Position numbers and translations under genes: made by a program. A model generated the notes under the pieces. The model was not told where the DNA came from. It did not search any database and was given only the letters and a program-made list of their open reading frames with translations. 40,257 nt of DNA from a bacterium. Its GTDB lineage: Archaea > Aenigmatarchaeota > Aenigmatarchaeia > CG10238-14 > SCSR01. Location of the stretch: contig DAIDAX010000003.1 in the NCBI GenBank assembly GCA_027310405.1, positions 1 through 40,257 on the forward strand, written 5' to 3'. Of this stretch, positions 4,027 to 19,257 are shown one piece after another; position 1 is the first letter of the stretch, and every line of letters begins with the position of its first letter.

Positions 4027-5655
4027 GTGAAAATAGTAACGAGAACATTGTCGCTTGGTATAATTAGACCCTATTATGGTAAAGAAGTAGAAGGAAGGAT
4101 AAAGGCTGAAAAAGATAATAGAGAGAAAGAATTTTTAGCAGCAAATAAAAATCTAATCTCTGATGAAAACGAACTGAAAAAGAAGGCTAAAGAAGCAAGA
4201 AAATTAGACCCAGCTTTTTGGTCTGCCCTTAAGAAAGAAAACCCAGAAATATTTACAATGAGAGAATTATCAGCCTTATTTTCACAACTGCAAAGACAAT
4301 ATGCACTTTTATACAATGAGACTATTAGTAAAATTTACGTTGAAGCACTTAAAACCAGAAAACTTAGTCGCGTGCAAAGTTTACTTAGTTCAATCGGCTA
4401 TAAGAAAGCTTATGAGGCATTCAAGGATTCTTCACTCGCATCTGGGTTAAGACAAAAATTACAAAGCAACTTCAATAAATCTAAATTTTATAATCTGATT
4501 AATGCAAGAATATCTTTACCCACAGCAACTTCTACAAATTTTCCTGTTTCTATATACAGGCAGACAAGCAGTGACAAATATGCAGGTTTTGAGATTCAGC
4601 CTAATAAGGAAGATTTCGTAATAAAGCTAACTTTGCCTGAATTCAAAATTAAGGAGAATGTTAATCCCAAAACTAAGAAAAAATTTCTTAGTTTTGAATT
4701 TTTAAAATCTCAGAAAAAGAAAGAAATATTTCTACTACTCTCAACAAAACGAAGAAGACAAAATGATAAACAATGGTTTGCTGATGAAGGTACAAGTGCT
4801 GAAATAAGAAAAGTAATTAATGGAGATCTAAAAAAAGAATGGGCAGAATATGCCAAAAGATTTGGAAAAGATAAAAATGAAAAAGACCAATTAAGAAATA
4901 AGTACAAAATTGGTTGGCTTGAAATAAGAAAGGGTAAAAAAATAGGCGAAAAATTTCGATGGTTTTTAAACTTAGTTATAGAACTGCCACCCAAAATGCA
5001 AAGATTAGATAAGAATATAGTTGGCGGAATAGACATCGGTGTCTCTAATCCAATCGTATGTGCTTTGAATAATTCTTTGAAAAGATATACAATAGGTAAT
5101 AACGATGTACTTTCATTTAATCGACATATGCAGGCTAGAAGGAGAATTCTTTTAAGAAAGAATCTCTTTAAAAGAAAAGGTCATGGGTCGAATAACAAAC
5201 TAGAGCCAATAACCTCTCTTACAGAAAAGAGCGAACGTTTTAGGAGTAAGATAATTGAGAGATGGGCAAAAGAGGTACAAAGATTCTTTTTACAAAATAG
5301 TTGTGGTATTGTTCAAATGGAAGATCTTAGTAACCTAAAAAATAAAGAAGATAATTTCTTTAATTTGTTTTTACGTGGTAAATGGCCATACGCAGAAATG
5401 CAAAATAACATAGAAAGAAAATTATCAGAAATTGGTATAGAAGTAAAAAAGATTTCTCCTAAATATACATCTCAGTTATGTTCAAACCCAAAATGTTTGA
5501 ACTGGAACAAGTGGTTTACATTTGCTTATAGAAAAGAAAATCGTTTTCCGTTATTTAAATGTGAGAAATGTAATTTAGAGGTTCCGGCTGACTACAATGC
5601 AGCTAAAAATATAGCTAATCCTAAAATAGAAAAAATAACAGAACGATTACGTTAG
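4027..5655 (+). CDS. cas12f: Type V-F effector Cas12f1 (Cas14a-like), 542 aa
   Basis: RuvC-I VGGIDIG, RuvC-II VQMEDL, Zn finger CSNPKC...CEKC, RuvC-III ADYNAAKNI. Cas14a-type blocks LLLSTKRR, DEGTSAEIRKV, KRKGHGSNNKLEPI, WPYAEMQ. Lies between cas1/2/4 and tracrRNA/array. Confidence 0.95.
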   Translation: MKIVTRTLSLGIIRPYYGKEVEGRIKAEKDNREKEFLAANKNLISDENELKKKAKEARKLDPAFWSALKKENPEIFTMRELSALFSQLQRQYALLYNETISKIYVEALKTRKLSRVQSLLSSIGYKKAYEAFKDSSLASGLRQKLQSNFNKSKFYNLINARISLPTATSTNFPVSIYRQTSSDKYAGFEIQPNKEDFVIKLTLPEFKIKENVNPKTKKKFLSFEFLKSQKKKEIFLLLSTKRRRQNDKQWFADEGTSAEIRKVINGDLKKEWAEYAKRFGKDKNEKDQLRNKYKIGWLEIRKGKKIGEKFRWFLNLVIELPPKMQRLDKNIVGGIDIGVSNPIVCALNNSLKRYTIGNNDVLSFNRHMQARRRILLRKNLFKRKGHGSNNKLEPITSLTEKSERFRSKIIERWAKEVQRFFLQNSCGIVQMEDLSNLKNKEDNFFNLFLRGKWPYAEMQNNIERKLSEIGIEVKKISPKYTSQLCSNPKCLNWNKWFTFAYRKENRFPLFKCEKCNLEVPADYNAAKNIANPKIEKITERLR

Positions 5656-11494: not shown

Positions 11495-11506
11495 AAAAAA
11501 TTATTG

Positions 11507-11581
11507 GGGGCCAGGTGGGGTTTGAACCCACGACCTTCTCCTTAGGACGGAGCTGCTCTATCCAAGCTGAGCTACAGGCCC
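11507..11581 (-). tRNA. tRNA-Arg(CCT)
   Basis: Cloverleaf GGGCCTG-TA-GCTC/GAGC-GCTCC[GT CCT AA]GGAGA-GTGGG[TTCAAAC]CCCAC-CTGGCCC; no intron. Confidence 0.9.
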
Positions 11582-14420: not shown

Positions 14421-14447
14421 AAACAAAAGAAGGACTAGCGTAGTCCT
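14420..14447 (-). terminator. Hairpin plus T-tract terminator after hisS
   Basis: AGGACTA-GCG-TAGTCCT 7-bp stem (14431-14447), followed on the minus strand by TCTTTTGTTTT. Confidence 0.5.
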
Positions 14448-15714
14448 AACCACCCACTTCTACAAACTTTAATAGTTCATCACGCGTAACAATTTTTTCT
14501 GACTCAGCTTGCATGTCTCTCAATTTGTACTCATTTCTCTGCAATTCTTCTTTCCCAACAATCACAACAAATTTAGATTTTATTTTGTCAGCATACTCAA
14601 GTTGTTTCTTGAGATCTCTATCCATCAAATCAATTTGACAAGGTACACCGTTTTCTCTCAAAAATTTTACTAAATCCAAAGCCCGATTCTGCAAATCTTC
14701 GTTAACGCTTGCGACAAAAATTTTTGTTGTTTTCAAATTTTCTTTAAACATGTTTTTATTTTTCATGACTTCGAGAATCCTATCGATGCCCAACGAGATT
14801 CCAGTGGCAGGGATATCCTTCCCTCCAACTTTCTTCATGAGATTGTCATAGCGACCTCCCCCACCACAAGAAACTCCAGCACCAAGTTCTACTTCGAAGA
14901 CTAATCCAGTATAATATTCTAACCCACGTACGAGCGAGAGATCGATTTTTATTTTATCTTCGAATCCCAGAGTTTTTGCATAATCAATCAAAGAATCCAA
15001 TTCCTCAAGACCTTCGCTTCGTCCCTTTCGTCCAAAAGTTCGAATGATTTCTTCATTAGATCCAGAAATTTTAATTACATCAAAAACTTTATCTGGTATG
15101 ATTCCATTTTTCACAAGCTCTTTTCTTACACCAGCCTCACCAATTTTTCCCCACTTATCAATTGCTCGAAATGTGTCCACTAATTTGTCTTTAGTCACAA
15201 CTTTTTCCAACAATTTTTCCAAAAGCTGTCTGCTGTTCACACGAATTGAAAAATCTTTGAATCCAAGTTTCTGCATAATTTCGCAAACGCATGCAAGACA
15301 TTCCGCATCTGCGAGTACACTTTTGCTTCCGACAACATCTATATCCGCTTGCCAAAATTCTCTGTAACGCATTGCCTGTGGATTGTCGTATCTCCAAACT
15401 TTTTCTATCTGATAACGTTTGAAAGGAAGAGGAAAGTTGCTAGATGTTACAATTCTTGCAAGCGGCATTGTCAAATCAAATCTTAAACCAAGCTGACGTT
15501 TCGATTTGTCTTCAAAAAAATAAATTTCATCCTTCACACCTTCGCCGAGCCCACCTTTTGCAGAAAGTAGCTCAAAACTTTCGAATGCAGGAGTGAACAG
15601 CGGCTCGAAACCATATTTTTCAAAAACATTTCTTACAACGTCGATAATTTTTTGTAGCTTTATCGCGTCTTCAGCCGCTACATCTCTCGTTCCCTTTGGC
15701 GGTTGGAATTTCAT
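14446..15714 (-). CDS. hisS: Histidyl-tRNA synthetase
   Basis: PKGTRD, LRFDLT, RYREFWQAD, VRGLEYYTG, GGGRYD. Likely start is ATG 15714 with AGGAGG SD. Confidence 0.97.
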   Translation of the reverse strand: MKFQPPKGTRDVAAEDAIKLQKIIDVVRNVFEKYGFEPLFTPAFESFELLSAKGGLGEGVKDEIYFFEDKSKRQLGLRFDLTMPLARIVTSSNFPLPFKRYQIEKVWRYDNPQAMRYREFWQADIDVVGSKSVLADAECLACVCEIMQKLGFKDFSIRVNSRQLLEKLLEKVVTKDKLVDTFRAIDKWGKIGEAGVRKELVKNGIIPDKVFDVIKISGSNEEIIRTFGRKGRSEGLEELDSLIDYAKTLGFEDKIKIDLSLVRGLEYYTGLVFEVELGAGVSCGGGGRYDNLMKKVGGKDIPATGISLGIDRILEVMKNKNMFKENLKTTKIFVASVNEDLQNRALDLVKFLRENGVPCQIDLMDRDLKKQLEYADKIKSKFVVIVGKEELQRNEYKLRDMQAESEKIVTRDELLKFVEVGG

Positions 15715-15718
15715 ATAA

Positions 15719-15964
15719 TTAATTCCTCCTTTGAGAATATCTTTTTGTTTTGGGTCCAGAGCCGGGATTCGAACCCGATCTAGAAGATTCACAGTCTTCC
15801 GTGCGAGCTTCTACACTACTCTGGACATTTGGAGCAAGAGTCAAACAATTTCTTTTTAGAAATATTTTTACGCGAGAATTTTCAAACAACTTTAACTTTG
15901 CTCTTAATCGAACTGGAATTGAAACTCGTCCTTTGGAATCGATTTTAGAAAAAGCACTGCTCAA
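15719..15964 (-). CDS. AbrB/MazE/SpoVT-family DNA-binding protein; C-terminal third is encoded by the tRNA-His gene
   Basis: SKIDSKGRVSIPVRLRAKLKL...V.I...LTLAP swapped-hairpin signature; GGTGA SD, TTG start; stop 4 nt before the hisS ATG. Confidence 0.8.
   Translation of the reverse strand: MSSAFSKIDSKGRVSIPVRLRAKLKLFENSRVKIFLKRNCLTLAPNVQSSVEARTEDCESSRSGSNPGSGPKTKRYSQRRN
15751..15826 (-). tRNA. tRNA-His(GTG) with encoded G-1, C73 and CCA
   Basis: G-TCCAGAG-TA-GTGT[AGAAGCTC]GCAC-G-GAAGA[CT GTG AA]TCTTC-TAGA-TCGGG[TTCGAAT]CCCGG-CTCTGGA-C-CCA. Confidence 0.9.
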
Positions 15965-15965
15965 A

Positions 15966-15998
15966 GTGAACTAATTCACCTTTTGTGAAAACGTTCGC
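15966..15998. promoter_or_regulatory. Tandem palindromic operator-like sites GTGAA-N4-TTCRC
   Basis: GTGAActaaTTCAC (15966-15979) and GTGAAaacgTTCGC (15985-15998), between a TATA box (TATAAATA, minus strand 16045-16038) and the AbrB start. Confidence 0.55.
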
Positions 15999-16062
15999 CT
16001 CTCATCCTTGTCACTTGAAAAGAAAATGTTTTTAGAGTATTTATATGTAAAGGTGGGAAAAA

Positions 16063-16203
16063 TCAAACTGGCTGTGCGAGCATCTGTCTATCCAAAACTT
16101 TTACTCCGTAGGAAACGCAACGATCGCAAACATCTATAATTGATCCTTCTATGTCTGCCTTATTCAGAAAAGGAACTTCCCTCCCACACAAATTGCACTC
16201 CAT
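16063..16203 (-). CDS. Stand-alone aMBF1-type zinc-ribbon miniprotein, 46 aa
   Basis: MECNLCGREVPFLNKADIEGSIIDVCDRCVSYG matches the CxxCG...IEG...VCxxC..(F/Y)G N-terminal domain of archaeal MBF1; no HTH follows. Confidence 0.75.
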   Translation of the reverse strand: MECNLCGREVPFLNKADIEGSIIDVCDRCVSYGVKVLDRQMLAQPV

Positions 16204-16380
16204 TCCAGCCCCATCCTGATACATATACTGTAAGATATAGTTTATATAGTTGGCTAATTTTTATGAAGCTTCTTTAAATAGATATTTTTCGAATAATCTT
16301 CAGTGAAAAACGTGAGTGGTACACGGATTGTCGAATAATTCTTCTGAAATTTTATTTACTATAGACCACAAGGTGTTTCT

Positions 16381-19257
16381 ATGGGAGTGAAGGAACAGGA
16401 AGACAAAGTTATACAGTTCTGGAACAAGCAGAAAATATACGAAAAAGTAAAAAAGAAAAATCAAGGAAAGAAAAAATTTTATTTTTTGGATGGACCGCCT
16501 TACGCAACAGGCGCAATTCACATGGGAACTGCAATAAACAAAATTCTGAAAGATTTTTACATCAGATTTTACAGAATGAACGGCTTCGATGTGTGGGATC
16601 AACCAGGATTCGATACTCATGGAGTCCCGATTGAAAATAAAGTTGAAAAAAAATTTGGATTCAAGACAAAAAAAGATATAGAAAAATTTGGAGTAGAAAA
16701 ATTTATCAGCGAGTGCAAAAAATTTGCTACGGAATTTGTTGGGCTGAATTCAAAACAATTTGCAGATCTTGGAGTTTGGATGGACTGGAAAAATCCATAC
16801 CTCACACTAACAAACGAATACATCGAAGGTGCATGGTACACTTTCAAAAAAGCTTTTGAGAAAGGTTTCTTGTACAAAGGAGATTATTCGGTTCACGTTT
16901 GTCCACATTGTGAAACTGTTGTTGCTTACAACGAAATTGAATACGACAAGGCCGAAGATCCTTCAATCTACGTCAAGTTCAAAGTTGAGGGAAAGAAAAA
17001 CGAATTTCTCTTAATTTGGACGACTACTCCATGGACTTTGCCATCGAACACTGGTGTGATGGTGAATCCAGAAGCAGATTATGTTAGAGTTAGAGTTGGT
17101 GACGAGATTTGGTATGTCTCTCATCGTCTGCTTGAAAGTCTGATGAAAAAATTTGAAATCAGTAAGTATGAAATTGTCGAACGAATGAAAGGAAAAAGTT
17201 TAGAAGGACTACGTTACGAACATCCTCTGAAAGATTTGTTTGTATTTCAACAACATTTAAAAAATGCACATCGAATTGTTTTGTCAGAAAAATATGTGAG
17301 TTTGGAAGAAGGAACTGGACTTGTTCACACAGCACCTGGACATGGGCAAGAAGATTACAAAGTTGGAATTGAAAATAAGTTACCGATTGTGAATCCTCTA
17401 AAGCTTGATGGAACTTTTAATGAACAGAGTTCGATCGTTTCAGGAGTTTTTGCAAAAGATGCCGACAAAATAATTGTCGAAGAGTTAGAAAAAAGAAAGT
17501 TATTGGTGTACCGCGAAAAAGTTGTGCACGATTATCCATTTTGTTGGAGATGCAACAATCCTTTGTTGATGATGGCGGTTCCACAATGGTTTTTCAAAGT
17601 TACAGAAATTCGAAACAAACTTCTTGCCGAAAATAAAAAAGTTCACTGGATTCCGGATTGGGCTGGAGTAAGATTTGAAAATTGGCTAGAAAGTTTGGGA
17701 GACTGGCCAGTTTCGAGACAAAGGTATTGGGGCATACCATTGCCGATTTGGATTTGTGAAAACTGTGGCGAGACAAAAGTTGTAGGTTCGAGAAATGAAT
17801 TGCCAAAGATTCCAAAAGATTTTCACAGACCACAAATCGATTCTGTAACATTCGTTTGCAAAAAATGTAAAGAAACGATGCGAAGAGTACCTGATGTTCT
17901 CGACGTTTGGTTCGATGCTGGTGTGGCTTCGTGGGCAACCCTTGGATATCCTGGAAACAAAAAACTTTTCAAGAAATGGTGGCCAGCTGATTTTATTTTG
18001 GAAGGTCCAGACCAAATTCGTGGCTGGTGGAATTCACAAATGATAACTAGCATGATGACTTTCGACAGAAGACCGTTCAACGAAGTTCTCTTTCACGGAT
18101 TTGTTTTGGATGCTCATGGTATAAAAATGTCGAAGAGCGAGGGCAACATAATAGCTCCAGAAGATGTTGTTCAAAAACATGGAAGAGACACATTGCGATT
18201 TTTTGCACTTTCAAATTTACCATGGGAAGATTTCTATTTCAAATGGGAAGATGTTGATGACATAAGCAAAAAACTTGTAGTCGTTAGAAATACTTTCAAT
18301 TTTGTCAAAACATACGTATCAGATAAAGGACAGCCGAAAAATTTACAGAAAGAAGACAAGTGGATGCTTTCAAAACTGAATTCATTGCTACAATCAGTTT
18401 CACAATCAATTGAAAATAAACATGCTTACAAAGCTGCACAGGAAATATTGAATTTTATTTTGGAAGATTTGAGTAGATGGTACATAAAACTTGTGCGCGA
18501 TAGAACATGGGTTCTCTATAAAGGTTCAGACAAGAAGGCAGCATTTTATGTTTTGTATAATGTTGTTGAATCCACACTCAGACTTCTTGCTCCATTCACG
18601 CCATTTTTAACAGATGATGTTTATCAATCTTGTATAAAATATATTGATAAAAAATCTGCTCAGTCAGTTCATTTCCTTGAATGGCCGGAACCAAATAAAA
18701 AATTGATCGACAAAAAACTCGAAGAAGAAATGCAAGTTGCAAAAAGAATAGTTGAATACTCAAATGCGGCAAGACAGCTTGCAGATATAAAACTAAGATG
18801 GCCGGTTGGAAAAATTTTTGTGCAAACCAAAAACAAGAAAGCAATTGTAACTATAAAGAATTTACAAAAAGTTTTAACTAAAATGTGTAACTGCAAAAAA
18901 GTTGAAATAATTAAAGAAAGGCCTGACGGTGATTTTACCGAAGCCGTATTTGATTATGGAATCATCTATGTAAATAAAATTTTGGACGAGAAGCTCATGG
19001 AAGAAGCAATGCTCAAAGAACTTGTTCGCCACATTCAGGACATGAGAAAGAAAAATAAATTTGAAGTTAAAGAATTAATTTCGTTATCAATTGAATCGGA
19101 TAAAGATATTAGTGATACAATTCTTAAGAATAAAAAATTCTTGATGCAAGAAGTTGGCGCAAAAAAAATTACTATTGGCAAACTTTCTGGAAGTTATAAA
19201 TCTGAACTCGACTTTGAGGACAAAAAAATTTCTGTTGCATTTTCAAAAACTCACTAA
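16381..19257 (+). CDS. ileS: Isoleucyl-tRNA synthetase
   Basis: DGPPYATGAIHMG, WTTTPWTLP, SRQRYWG, KMSKS. Confidence 0.97.
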   Translation: MGVKEQEDKVIQFWNKQKIYEKVKKKNQGKKKFYFLDGPPYATGAIHMGTAINKILKDFYIRFYRMNGFDVWDQPGFDTHGVPIENKVEKKFGFKTKKDIEKFGVEKFISECKKFATEFVGLNSKQFADLGVWMDWKNPYLTLTNEYIEGAWYTFKKAFEKGFLYKGDYSVHVCPHCETVVAYNEIEYDKAEDPSIYVKFKVEGKKNEFLLIWTTTPWTLPSNTGVMVNPEADYVRVRVGDEIWYVSHRLLESLMKKFEISKYEIVERMKGKSLEGLRYEHPLKDLFVFQQHLKNAHRIVLSEKYVSLEEGTGLVHTAPGHGQEDYKVGIENKLPIVNPLKLDGTFNEQSSIVSGVFAKDADKIIVEELEKRKLLVYREKVVHDYPFCWRCNNPLLMMAVPQWFFKVTEIRNKLLAENKKVHWIPDWAGVRFENWLESLGDWPVSRQRYWGIPLPIWICENCGETKVVGSRNELPKIPKDFHRPQIDSVTFVCKKCKETMRRVPDVLDVWFDAGVASWATLGYPGNKKLFKKWWPADFILEGPDQIRGWWNSQMITSMMTFDRRPFNEVLFHGFVLDAHGIKMSKSEGNIIAPEDVVQKHGRDTLRFFALSNLPWEDFYFKWEDVDDISKKLVVVRNTFNFVKTYVSDKGQPKNLQKEDKWMLSKLNSLLQSVSQSIENKHAYKAAQEILNFILEDLSRWYIKLVRDRTWVLYKGSDKKAAFYVLYNVVESTLRLLAPFTPFLTDDVYQSCIKYIDKKSAQSVHFLEWPEPNKKLIDKKLEEEMQVAKRIVEYSNAARQLADIKLRWPVGKIFVQTKNKKAIVTIKNLQKVLTKMCNCKKVEIIKERPDGDFTEAVFDYGIIYVNKILDEKLMEEAMLKELVRHIQDMRKKNKFEVKELISLSIESDKDISDTILKNKKFLMQEVGAKKITIGKLSGSYKSELDFEDKKISVAFSKTH

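Follow-up and report, generated by a model that had tools for sequence, protein, structure and literature searches.

In bacteria, the his operon is controlled by leader-peptide attenuation and aminoacyl-tRNA synthetase genes by T-box riboswitches, and in the thrS leader of Escherichia coli the synthetase ThrRS binds a tRNA-mimicking operator. The bacterial gene for release factor 2 (RF2), prfB, is autoregulated by a +1 frameshift helped by an internal Shine-Dalgarno (SD) sequence, and according to one study duplexes upstream of the slip site can reportedly stimulate +1 shifts as well. To our knowledge, archaea have no T-boxes, and we know of no leader-peptide attenuator described for them. Here we analyse a locus in a 40,257-nucleotide (nt) stretch of DNA, hereafter the window (assembly GCA_027310405.1, contig DAIDAX010000003.1; GTDB lineage Archaea; Aenigmatarchaeota; Aenigmatarchaeia; CG10238-14; SCSR01), in which an open reading frame (ORF) encoding an AbrB-family domain runs without a stop codon through a tRNA-His gene and closes just before hisS, the gene of histidyl-tRNA synthetase (HisRS). 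Based on comparisons of this locus with its relatives, we propose that it heads a histidine-tRNA-supply operon gated by +1 frameshifting at 'hungry' histidine codons, with translation running across the tRNA, a reading to which we assign a probability of roughly 0.45. That AbrB, tRNA-His and hisS form a functional, co-transcribed unit is considerably more probable, and the layout of the unit, its conservation, the coding constraint on AbrB, the constraint on the tRNA and the relations between the reading frames are established at the level of sequence.

For archaea, the review PMC8211752 presents selenocysteine (Sec) and pyrrolysine (Pyl) read-through and a single -1 frameshift (fucA1) as demonstrated and names no others, +1 frameshifts being suggested for a haloarchaeal virus and for Mg-chelatase. 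The same review reports that in other systems 'hungry' frameshifting is known to occur when aminoacyl-tRNA is limiting, and mentions antizyme frameshifting and internal SD stimulators (PMC8211752). According to PMC6542539, yeast HisRS autoregulates through an anticodon mimic on its own mRNA. In the open-access papers searched, we found no description of an ORF passing through a tRNA gene, of AbrB associated with tRNA-His, or of archaeal frameshift sensing at histidine codons.

The window belongs to a draft, metagenome-assembled genome of 537 kb in 82 contigs (88.6% complete), and its locus is L029 in our locus set; loci, genomes and contigs are cited by L, G and C numbers where they have to be told apart. 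From the AbrB domain onwards, the parts are the following.

15964..15719, minus strand: AbrB-domain ORF, TTG start, 81 amino acids in the ORF listing; ORF proper at 15827..15964.

15826..15751, minus strand: tRNA-His(GTG) of 'type B', called by ARAGORN at 15825..15751 and extended by G-1 at 15826; read in frame by the AbrB ORF.

15719..15750, minus strand: A-rich trailer encoding KTKRYSQRRN and the stop codon TAA (15721..15719), with the hisS SD AGGAGG at 15730..15725 and no T-run.

14446..15714, minus strand: hisS, histidyl-tRNA synthetase of 422 amino acids (Pfam PF13393 tRNA-synt_His, E 8.8e-44; PF03129 HGTP_anticodon, E 7.6e-15).

The Pfam domain of the ORF spans residues 7-46 (15946..15827) and has no stop codon at its end. 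The translation reads LTLAPN at the domain end, then VQSSVEARTEDCESSRSGSNPGSGP, then KTKRYSQRRN. G-1 of the tRNA (15826), which pairs with C73 (15754), begins the Val codon after Asn AAT (15829..15827), and CCA is encoded at 15753..15751. The last sense codons of the ORF, CAA AGG AGG AAT, are followed by TAA, 4 nt and the hisS ATG at 15714. In these respects the coordinates and frames bear out the initial annotation, made from the window alone, which had seen the domain end exactly where the tRNA begins, the frame continue through the tRNA while the other two sense frames meet TAG within its first 16 nt, and the ORF stop 4 nt before the hisS ATG; the AGG AGG codons to which it drew attention are present, and are simply the hisS SD.

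To judge from its relatives, the junction is not peculiar to the window. Among 55 loci of the AbrB subfamily examined in Aenigmatarchaeota (DPANN), a first set of 40 and a further set of 15, the stop-less AbrB-tRNA junction is found in 32 (22/40 and 9/15 by ARAGORN, one more, in G017, by covariance model), a count of loci that are kin and hence not independent. None of the 31 junctions detected by ARAGORN has a stop codon before the tRNA, and the reservation of the initial annotation, that the frame may be open by chance after loss of a stop codon, is not supported by this recurrence. The AbrB frame stays open through the tRNA in 30/31 (21/22 computed, 9/9 read from printed frames), the exception being L041, in which it stops 5 nt before the tRNA 3' end. 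It is the sole open frame in 16 of 22 tRNAs, that of the window included, the other two frames being open in 5 of 44 cases. Insertions at the junction (+12 nt in L027 and +24 nt in L028, between domain and tRNA) and within the tRNA (15 nt in L028 of G073 and L042 of G070, a 54-nt intron in L206 of G248) are all multiples of 3, which disfavours pure inheritance of an open frame. The 15-nt insertions sit between the D arm and the anticodon stem, and both they and the 54-nt insertion, introns of a canonical or non-canonical kind, are in frame and stop-free; at the intron of L206 ARAGORN calls tRNA-Tyr(gta), yet the unspliced loop reads like the other copies. We note that a database protein, P0002, suggests a further tRNA insertion of 18 nt. 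One clade (L023, L024, L033, L030) has the junction shifted by one base together with a D loop one base shorter, which points the same way.

The layout is reminiscent of the tRNA punctuation of animal mitochondria, where likewise a tRNA lies between coding parts, no complete stop codon precedes it, and its removal by RNases P and Z would split the mRNAs. Here, in contrast, the ORF continues across the whole tRNA to a stop beyond it. Completion of a stop codon by A-tailing does not fit, since the last codon in the common phase is a complete AAT (Asn) or GAT (Asp), and only the phase-shifted clade ends in a lone T before the tRNA. A draft metagenome-assembled source, and a degenerate tRNA copy in G017, may raise the suspicion of a mis-assembly or of a pseudogenised AbrB remnant beside a tRNA; to this we give almost no credence, as the same arrangement is present in dozens of independent assemblies and at least ten families, with AbrB under purifying selection and compensatory changes in the tRNA. 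Conservation of the AbrB-tRNA-His-hisS unit far beyond chance is confirmed across the genomes compared.

The embedded element has the sequence properties of a genuine tRNA-His. In the window it scores 52.2 bits against the Rfam tRNA model (gathering threshold 29) and 83.0 bits against the tRNA-His covariance model R1. G-1 is typical of tRNA-His, and G-1:C73 and the GUG anticodon are the identity elements of HisRS; the former pair is found in 30/30 tRNA-His copies and the anticodon is kept. Taking both tRNA-His types together, 99.4% of the cloverleaf cells are paired and 15/22 pairs show two-sided changes. As the stretch also lacks codon periodicity (entropy 0.50, 0.69 and 0.64 by codon position), its sequence is shaped by the tRNA and not by a tail peptide. 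The initial annotation had taken it for the tRNA-His of the cell, which it is not: besides the AbrB-linked gene, the source genome carries a canonical tRNA-His(GTG) gene on contig C1, making two in all. By covariance model, 13/20 type-B genomes of the order have a second tRNA-His elsewhere, at 68 bits or more; the other 7, from incomplete genomes, have none among the matches listed. On this comparison, the embedded type B tRNA is an extra, conserved tRNA-His copy. Like the mimicry of thrS and of yeast HisRS, the arrangement puts a tRNA-shaped element, here of tRNA-His, on HisRS mRNA; unlike them, it involves a complete tRNA gene under full cloverleaf constraint, often kilobases from hisS, and binding of HisRS to this tRNA is hypothetical.

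How the tRNA is expressed may be read from its flanks. Stand-alone tRNA-His genes have a TATA-like box about 35 nt upstream and T-runs downstream. T-runs of at least 4 occur in 0/18 type B trailers vs 10/21 stand-alone tRNA-His, the type B trailers being A-rich and leading into the next SD and start. A separate promoter inside AbrB was considered and appears improbable, as no constant TATA-like box at a fixed distance upstream of the embedded tRNAs was found, an A-rich stretch being present in some loci. The embedded tRNA is thus likely made from the AbrB promoter within a longer transcript. Rejected was a lineage with leaderless tRNAs and no RNase P, ruled out by an archaeal RNase P RNA of 93 bits in the source genome. 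The idea of the initial annotation that one transcript has mutually exclusive fates, translation or tRNA excision, agrees with the missing box and T-run and with the stop at the next start, and survives as one part of the larger proposal made here.

A few further tRNAs deserve mention. The junction of G017 (L027, C10) that ARAGORN misses holds a degenerate type B tRNA (C at position 33, a mismatch in the T stem, R1 71.4 bits), and the canonical tRNA-His of that genome is on another contig. Genome G000 has open frames into or through other predicted tRNAs, namely tRNA-Ser (gga; C11 35990, 226 codons), tRNA-Pro (cgg; C22 7085, 72 codons) and tRNA-Gly (tcc; C11 1461, 299 codons). At the tRNA-Arg(cct) of the window, 11506-11581, no started ORF of at least 50 amino acids was found on that strand.

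The protein part of the locus is AbrB-like on several counts. The window ORF scores 23.4 bits against PF04014 over its whole length and 25.2 bits with the domain alone (cut-off 24.7), all 16 aligned relatives match the family (best E 3.1e-11), which places the subfamily within AbrB, and the profile matches the solved AbrB N-domain 1z0r at E 5.1e-8. As far as sequence profiles go, the assignment of the window ORF is sound. With the domain profile A1, the specific subfamily scores 66.9-89.7 bits and is present in 31/118 genomes of the order, other AbrB paralogues reaching at most 32.2 bits; it also occurs in other families of the class (53/371 genomes at E <=1e-8). As a query, the 81-residue window ORF gave no match in a 5.8-billion-protein collection, in a comparison covering near lengths only. 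The domain carries a coding signature, with a ratio of nonsynonymous to synonymous differences (pN/pS) of 0.375 in its own frame vs 0.86 and 1.58 in the others, and entropies of 0.84, 0.53 and 1.52 by codon position, the third being highest. Unlike AbrB, SpoVT and MazE proteins, members of the subfamily are domain-only, have no partner toxin and are linked to a tRNA and to histidine genes, some being fused to a racemase or HisG. No toxin families were found among the downstream neighbours, the padloc library not being part of that search, and no MazE-type antitoxin pairing was seen.

Fusion of this kind is suggested by several open frames. The AbrB frame continues without a stop into an Asp/Glu racemase, for 288-294 codons, in L025 (G015), L040 (G003) and L043 (G086), crosses the tRNA into the racemase in L229 (G295), and enters a HisG domain in L227 (G337; 358 codons). 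Such frames may encode genuine fusion proteins or be additional cases of read-through.

What sets the subfamily apart is the absence of start codons. In 18/40 AbrB ORFs the interval from the upstream in-frame stop to the domain contains no ATG, GTG or TTG, and yet the coding signature of these startless loci is unchanged (pN/pS 0.36). The TTG 'start' of the window and of L031 is TTA in L026, the sister of L031, and the Leu of the conserved D-L-P is spelled TTA, TTG and CTG across loci. A conserved TTC ACN precedes the domain, always in phase with it despite a linker of 4-25 codons, and the third base of ACN is free. From the startless loci, the in-phase TTC ACN and the TTA/TTG swap it follows that translation must enter the AbrB frame at TTC ACN without a start there. 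Database proteins of the subfamily begin M-x-(Q/E/H/Y/S/V)-F-T: if TTC is preceded by a sense codon, gene callers put the protein start at a GTG or ATG two codons upstream.

A candidate route into the AbrB frame lies in the leader, which the initial annotation, correct at the 3' junction, had missed together with the startless homologues. In the window its parts are as follows.

16038..16058, minus strand: promoter-like region, TCCCACC at 16058..16052 and then an A/T box, ATATAAATA, at 16046..16038; putative promoter.

15976..16005, minus strand: short upstream ORF, ATG at 16005, nine sense codons (MRGERFHKR), TGA at 15978..15976.

15985..15999, minus strand: cassette 1, GGCGAA, 4 nt, TTCAC; in the upstream-ORF frame, TTT at 15990..15988 and His CAC at 15987..15985.

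15966..15980, minus strand: cassette 2, GGTGAA TTAG TTCAC; GTT at 15971..15969 and His CAC at 15968..15966.

Every locus has TCCCAC(C), an A/T box and, about 25 nt on, an SD-like GGTG or GTGA with an ATG that opens a short ORF outside the AbrB frame; in the window, GTGA lies 6 nt 5' of the ATG and the frame is one base after that of AbrB. Within or after the short ORF are one or two 15-nt elements made of a GGTGA-like hexamer, 4 nt, and TTCAC or TTCAT. Read in the short-ORF frame, the element is GGN GAN NNN NTT CAY, i.e. a His codon after GTT, CTT or TTT. Read in the AbrB frame, it is GTG-NNN-X-TTC-ACN, where X is TAG in 23/40 loci and otherwise CAG (3), TGG (2), GAG (1), CAC (5), GCG (1) or TTG (1), four loci having another layout; cassette 2 of the window is GTG AAT TAG TTC ACT, with the in-frame TAG at 15973..15971. 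Slipping by +1 from NTT to TTC in the P site, with CAY still undecoded in the A site, brings the ribosome to ACN, the frame of the main ORF, and TAG at X, being part of TTA GTT in the 0 frame, would never be read after such a slip. Where elements are paired, their His codons lie 19 (as in the window), 28 or 31 nt apart, always 1 mod 3, so that a first slip puts the second element in its GGN GAN frame; in the window, GTT and CAC of cassette 2 are in the frame reached by a +1 slip at cassette 1. If the first slip fails, translation terminates at the TGA within element 2; if only the second fails, at a conserved TTC TAA.

We formalised this as a walk that begins at an SD-preceded ATG or GTG and shifts by +1 at every in-frame NTT, TCC or TTC followed by CAY. 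It reaches the AbrB domain stop-free in 33/40 loci, including 16/18 of the startless ones, with two shifts needed in 18 loci and one in 15; L061 requires that a Tyr codon be counted, and the window route runs from the ATG through TTT|CAC and then GTT|CAC. In terms of sequence organisation, the loci thus have what characterises a programmed +1 frameshift: a short 0-frame ORF, a long +1 ORF without a start, and a conserved site with a stimulator. The resemblance to prfB and antizyme extends to the started short 0-frame ORF, a shift-prone P-site codon, a slow A-site codon and an SD-like element just upstream, and to a functional +1 protein that has no start of its own and a shift rate that would report on what the operon supplies. 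The slow codon is, unlike in prfB, a sense codon (His, once Tyr) and not a stop, and the archaeal cassettes differ from both systems in being modular, in tandem and placed ahead of several genes.

Other routes past the TAG were considered. AbrB might start at the GTG inside cassette 2, with the TAG two codons on being read through or followed by re-initiation, which would keep the regulator very low. Such a start would agree with the sense codons at X in relatives, with the first residues of the database proteins, and with the overlap of the upstream-ORF TGA with the GTG (GTGA), a usual coupling arrangement; yet GCG or GGG replaces the GTG in L042, L051 and L061, TAG is an ordinary stop in the genome (it ends 61/338 long ORFs), none of the 31 tRNAs identified carries a CUA anticodon, and only Sec and Pyl read-through is given as demonstrated in archaea in the review PMC8211752. 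We regard this start as very improbable. Genome-wide reassignment of TAG is rejected by the same 61/338 ORFs and the lack of a suppressor tRNA among the 31. Splicing between the two TTCAC repeats, or a ribosomal hop from CAC to CAC, is rejected because the 19-nt spacing gives the wrong frame, and a single -1 shift from the upstream ORF because the AbrB-frame TAG lies downstream of the upstream-ORF stop.

The cassette is not confined to AbrB. A detector that allows His or Tyr at the A site, in which the GGTGA-like 6-mer stands 4 nt upstream by construction and whose rules were set after seeing the data of these related genomes, finds 86 cassettes in 48/55 loci. Their P sites are GTT (57), CTT (24), TCC (2), TTT (2) and TTC (1), and their A sites CAC (60), CAT (24), TAC (1) and TAT (1), i.e. 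His in 84/86; the hexamer is GGTGAA in 38/86. An SD-preceded ATG or GTG ORF lies ahead of 63/86, the 0 frame stops within 10 codons in 72/86, and the +1 frame is closed 0 codons upstream in 31/86. With the A site left free, 43 matches were obtained (37 His, 2 Tyr, 3 TGG, 1 GGC), vs 1 on the opposite strand of the same loci as a control. All three TGG belong to the racemase-fused clade, which thus has a cassette-like element with a Trp codon in the A-site position. Across five whole genomes, the bare motif gives 23 matches vs 9 in a reversed control, and only its operon copies combine a short 0 frame with a long +1 frame.

Within the operons, cassettes are also found ahead of genes for a HisRS-like protein (L042), a HisD-like protein (L036), HisG (L049) and methyltransferases (L028, L048), and in L050 ahead of a 400-codon ORF, again with TAG at X, among others; in every case a strong SD and ATG open the 0 frame, the long ORF being in +1. 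In G073, homology of the methyltransferase to its G074 relative begins at residue 6 past the shift site (E 5e-38), although the G073 frame offers no canonical start until 30 codons later and closes 5 codons upstream. AbrB loci that lack the tRNA end in short unrelated tails and still carry the cassette.

One locus has exchanged the codon. In G127 (L061/L199, C14 ~4645-4818 and flanks), a subfamily AbrB again follows the promoter motif, SD, ATG and a cassette, and its stop overlaps the ATG belonging to a second cassette; both cassettes have a Tyr codon in the A site, TAC in the first and TAT in the second. After the second cassette come a 61-codon +1 ORF and then a tyrosine-tRNA ligase (Pfam tRNA-synt_1b; NCBIfam NF006330, 261.8 bits vs a cut-off of 220). 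In the closest relatives within the family (G125, G126, G121, G124), the cassettes have His codons instead. ARAGORN called no tRNA anywhere in the G127 locus of 3.1 kb. A swap of this type is predicted by a codon-specific sensor and by T-box-like pairing, not by operator or hairpin models. As in the his leader and in T-boxes, a leader codon for the relevant amino acid thus changes with the synthetase (His with hisS, Tyr with tyrS); unlike there, the leader has no terminator/antiterminator pair, each cassette holds one codon, and the output would be a change of reading frame.

Since a specifier model predicts the codon switch too, sensing at the RNA level, without any frameshift, has to be weighed here: TTCAC could pair with the anticodon loop of free tRNA-His, or HisRS could bind the embedded tRNA or a GUGAA arm. 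UUCAC complements bases 34-38 in the anticodon loop of the type B tRNA, CUGUGAA, the embedded tRNA keeps the identity elements of HisRS, and the yeast enzyme regulates itself through an anticodon mimic (PMC6542539). No such sensor, however, needs the codon to be always in the frame of a started ORF and the main ORF always in +1, and loci without the tRNA retain the cassette. Moreover, an Rfam scan of 15000..16600 gave no family other than tRNA at E <=1, and hence no T-box, and the element is only 15 nt and has no large T-box scaffold. We consider sensing by RNA alone improbable, and think that the upstream ORF with its His codons is the real sensor.

Downstream, the subfamily is tied to hisS. 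The gene follows AbrB on the same contig and strand, at 0.05-4.9 kb, in 29/31 subfamily-carrying genomes of the order (in G015 and G086 it is on another contig) and, by Pfam, in three loci of other families. Direct adjacency as in the window, described in the initial annotation, is not the rule. Between AbrB and hisS there is often HisG (L035, L049, L053, L057, L223; weak in L045), histidinol dehydrogenase (HisD; L036, L094, L096), a HisRS-like protein without its N-terminal portion (L042, L046) or, in L206, an aromatic amino acid lyase; further intervening genes encode Asp/Glu racemase, an SAM methyltransferase plus a radical SAM protein, GNAT, peptidases and small ORFs. Conversely, 19 hisS loci of subfamily-less genomes have neither tRNA-His nor the AbrB motif in the 1.5 kb upstream, and one chance cassette-like match, so that the module is an optional head of an operon containing hisS. 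We note that the small genomes of L094 (G057) and L096 (G088) have HisG and histidinol dehydrogenase, the first and last steps of histidine synthesis, beside hisS. In L095 (5342-7123; G063:C5), a tRNA_SAD domain is joined to the N-terminus of HisRS (594 amino acids in all), and a cassette immediately 5' has no more than a 31-codon +1 ORF ahead of the fusion.

The end of the AbrB frame is placed with respect to the next gene. In 19/21 tRNA-linked loci its first stop after the tRNA falls within -10..+30 nt of the next SD-preceded start, the nearest such start having been chosen by hand from the listing. An exact ATGA or GTGA overlap occurs in 8/21 for the AbrB frame vs 2/21 and 1/21 for the others, and stops more than 10 nt before the start in 2, 3 and 11 of 21 for the three frames; with gaps from tRNA to next gene of only 12-45 nt, these statistics are modest. 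Such placement fits translational coupling to the next gene. In L030 (G006:C10), AbrB, tRNA, spacer and hisS form a single open frame of 527 codons. Frame phase, synteny and stop position, which the initial annotation had proposed to check, are largely conserved among the relatives.

Combining these observations, we propose that the operon operates as follows. Its head consists, in order, of a promoter, an SD and ATG opening a short ORF with one or two cassettes, the +1 AbrB ORF, a dedicated tRNA-His, variable genes and hisS. When charged tRNA-His is scarce, the ribosome would pause with a His codon in its A site and slip by +1 from NTT to TTC, presumably helped by pairing of the GGTGA element with the 16S 3' end, by analogy with the RF2 gene; in the window, two successive slips would be needed before the AbrB frame is translated. 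The ribosome that translates AbrB would then cross the tRNA, in competition with its folding and excision by RNase P, and would stop at the next start codon, where downstream genes would be translationally coupled, while further cassettes would gate single genes of the operon under low His-tRNA. When histidine is plentiful, the short ORF would terminate, AbrB would remain silent, and the tRNA would fold and be excised, providing extra tRNA-His. The AbrB protein itself, which would bind DNA, probably acts on the operon's own promoter. More tentatively, the whole may represent a previously undescribed, modular and amino-acid-specific sensor, in which a 15-nt cassette gates AbrB and operon genes, translation and tRNA excision compete on one RNA, and a codon swap re-targets the response.

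A target for AbrB may be the TCCCAC(C) motif (window 16052-16058 and homologous sites), which we regard as a candidate binding site. The TCCCACC and A/T-box block is kept in an alignment of 16 loci and in further families. As a general promoter motif it was rejected, as a loose search for the combined motif gives only 14 matches in the 537-kb genome, several of them tRNA 3' ends. TCCCAC(C), 5-8 nt 5' of the A/T box, is specific to these operons and resembles the TTCACC arm of the cassette. Just 5' of the promoter motif ends a 53-residue zinc-ribbon ORF (16063-16224, minus strand), with a weak Pfam match, under cut-off, to the N-terminus of an HVO_2718-like transcription regulator (E 5e-4).

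Set against the frameshift proposal is a simpler explanation, passive overlap in a compact genome: AbrB as an ordinary small regulator, perhaps of itself, with a conventional start (TTG in the window; GTG, ATG or non-canonical codons in others), a tRNA cut from the co-transcript, a harmless tail dating from an ancestral loss of the stop codon, and repeats that are palindromic operators or SD-masking hairpins, plus an ordinary regulatory upstream ORF. Several observations favour it or weigh against our proposal. In the window, the TTG at 15964, the only canonical start after the TAG in the AbrB frame, stands right after cassette 2, and AbrB could be made there without a slip; the upstream starts chosen by gene callers likewise mean that conventional initiation may serve some members. 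In the clade of L047, L049, L050 and L057 the start is a conventional GTG, the His codon is read in phase with AbrB and the walk has no route, and L039 and L060 fail the SD filter of the walk. This phase is also open in 10/21 stand-alone tRNA-His genes of the order (after re-phasing four rows where ARAGORN counted G-1 as base 1), so conservation of the tRNA itself suffices to hold the frame open, no added selection being needed, and part of the read-through comes free. The tRNA-encoded tail lacks codon periodicity, tRNA-less loci end in short unrelated tails, and the frame one base over stops early about as rarely as that of AbrB (3/21 vs 2/21). GGTGAA and TTCAC are complementary, and TCCCACC lies 5' of the A/T box, as for several half-sites.

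Other points also count against the proposal. Two consecutive slips would be inefficient, and GTT, the commonest P-site codon (57/86), re-pairs with TTC, by our reasoning, at only two of three positions. The hisS of the window has its own strong SD and ATG. The cassette counts, given post hoc rules and kin genomes, overstate independence and describe rather than test, and the Tyr version is one locus among 55, with two cassettes.

Passive overlap, on the other hand, leaves much unaccounted for. A conventionally started AbrB is at odds with the 18/40 loci in which a domain still under coding constraint has no canonical start, with the TTA of L026 against the TTG of its sister L031, and with linker insertions and deletions that leave TTC ACN in frame. 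As to operators and hairpins, changes in the 5' arm are uncompensated in L042, L043, L051 and L061 while TTCAC stays, and the motif is present at internal gene starts, beyond the promoter; the case for a strict GGTGAA/TTCAC RNA hairpin is weakened by these uncompensated changes. Nor would a harmless tail account for junction and intron insertions that are all multiples of 3, and the Tyr codons before tyrS go unexplained. On balance, we judge passive overlap unlikely, though far from negligible.

In conclusion, we describe an AbrB-tRNA-His-hisS unit of Aenigmatarchaeota in which a protein-coding frame passes through a conserved, extra tRNA gene, and propose that entry into this frame is gated by +1 frameshifting at histidine codons. 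Standard gene callers miss or truncate these genes. The cassette, being only 15 nt, modular and apparently re-targetable by one codon, might be of use as a synthetic sensor. How archaea match the expression of aminoacyl-tRNA synthetase and amino-acid genes to demand is largely unknown. If the proposal is true, the system would represent the first cellular programmed +1 frameshift of archaea with a clear regulatory logic, the first natural hungry sense codon used as an amino-acid sensor, and the first protein-coding frame that functionally runs through a working tRNA gene; it would thereby provide a functional archaeal counterpart of bacterial attenuation and T-box control.

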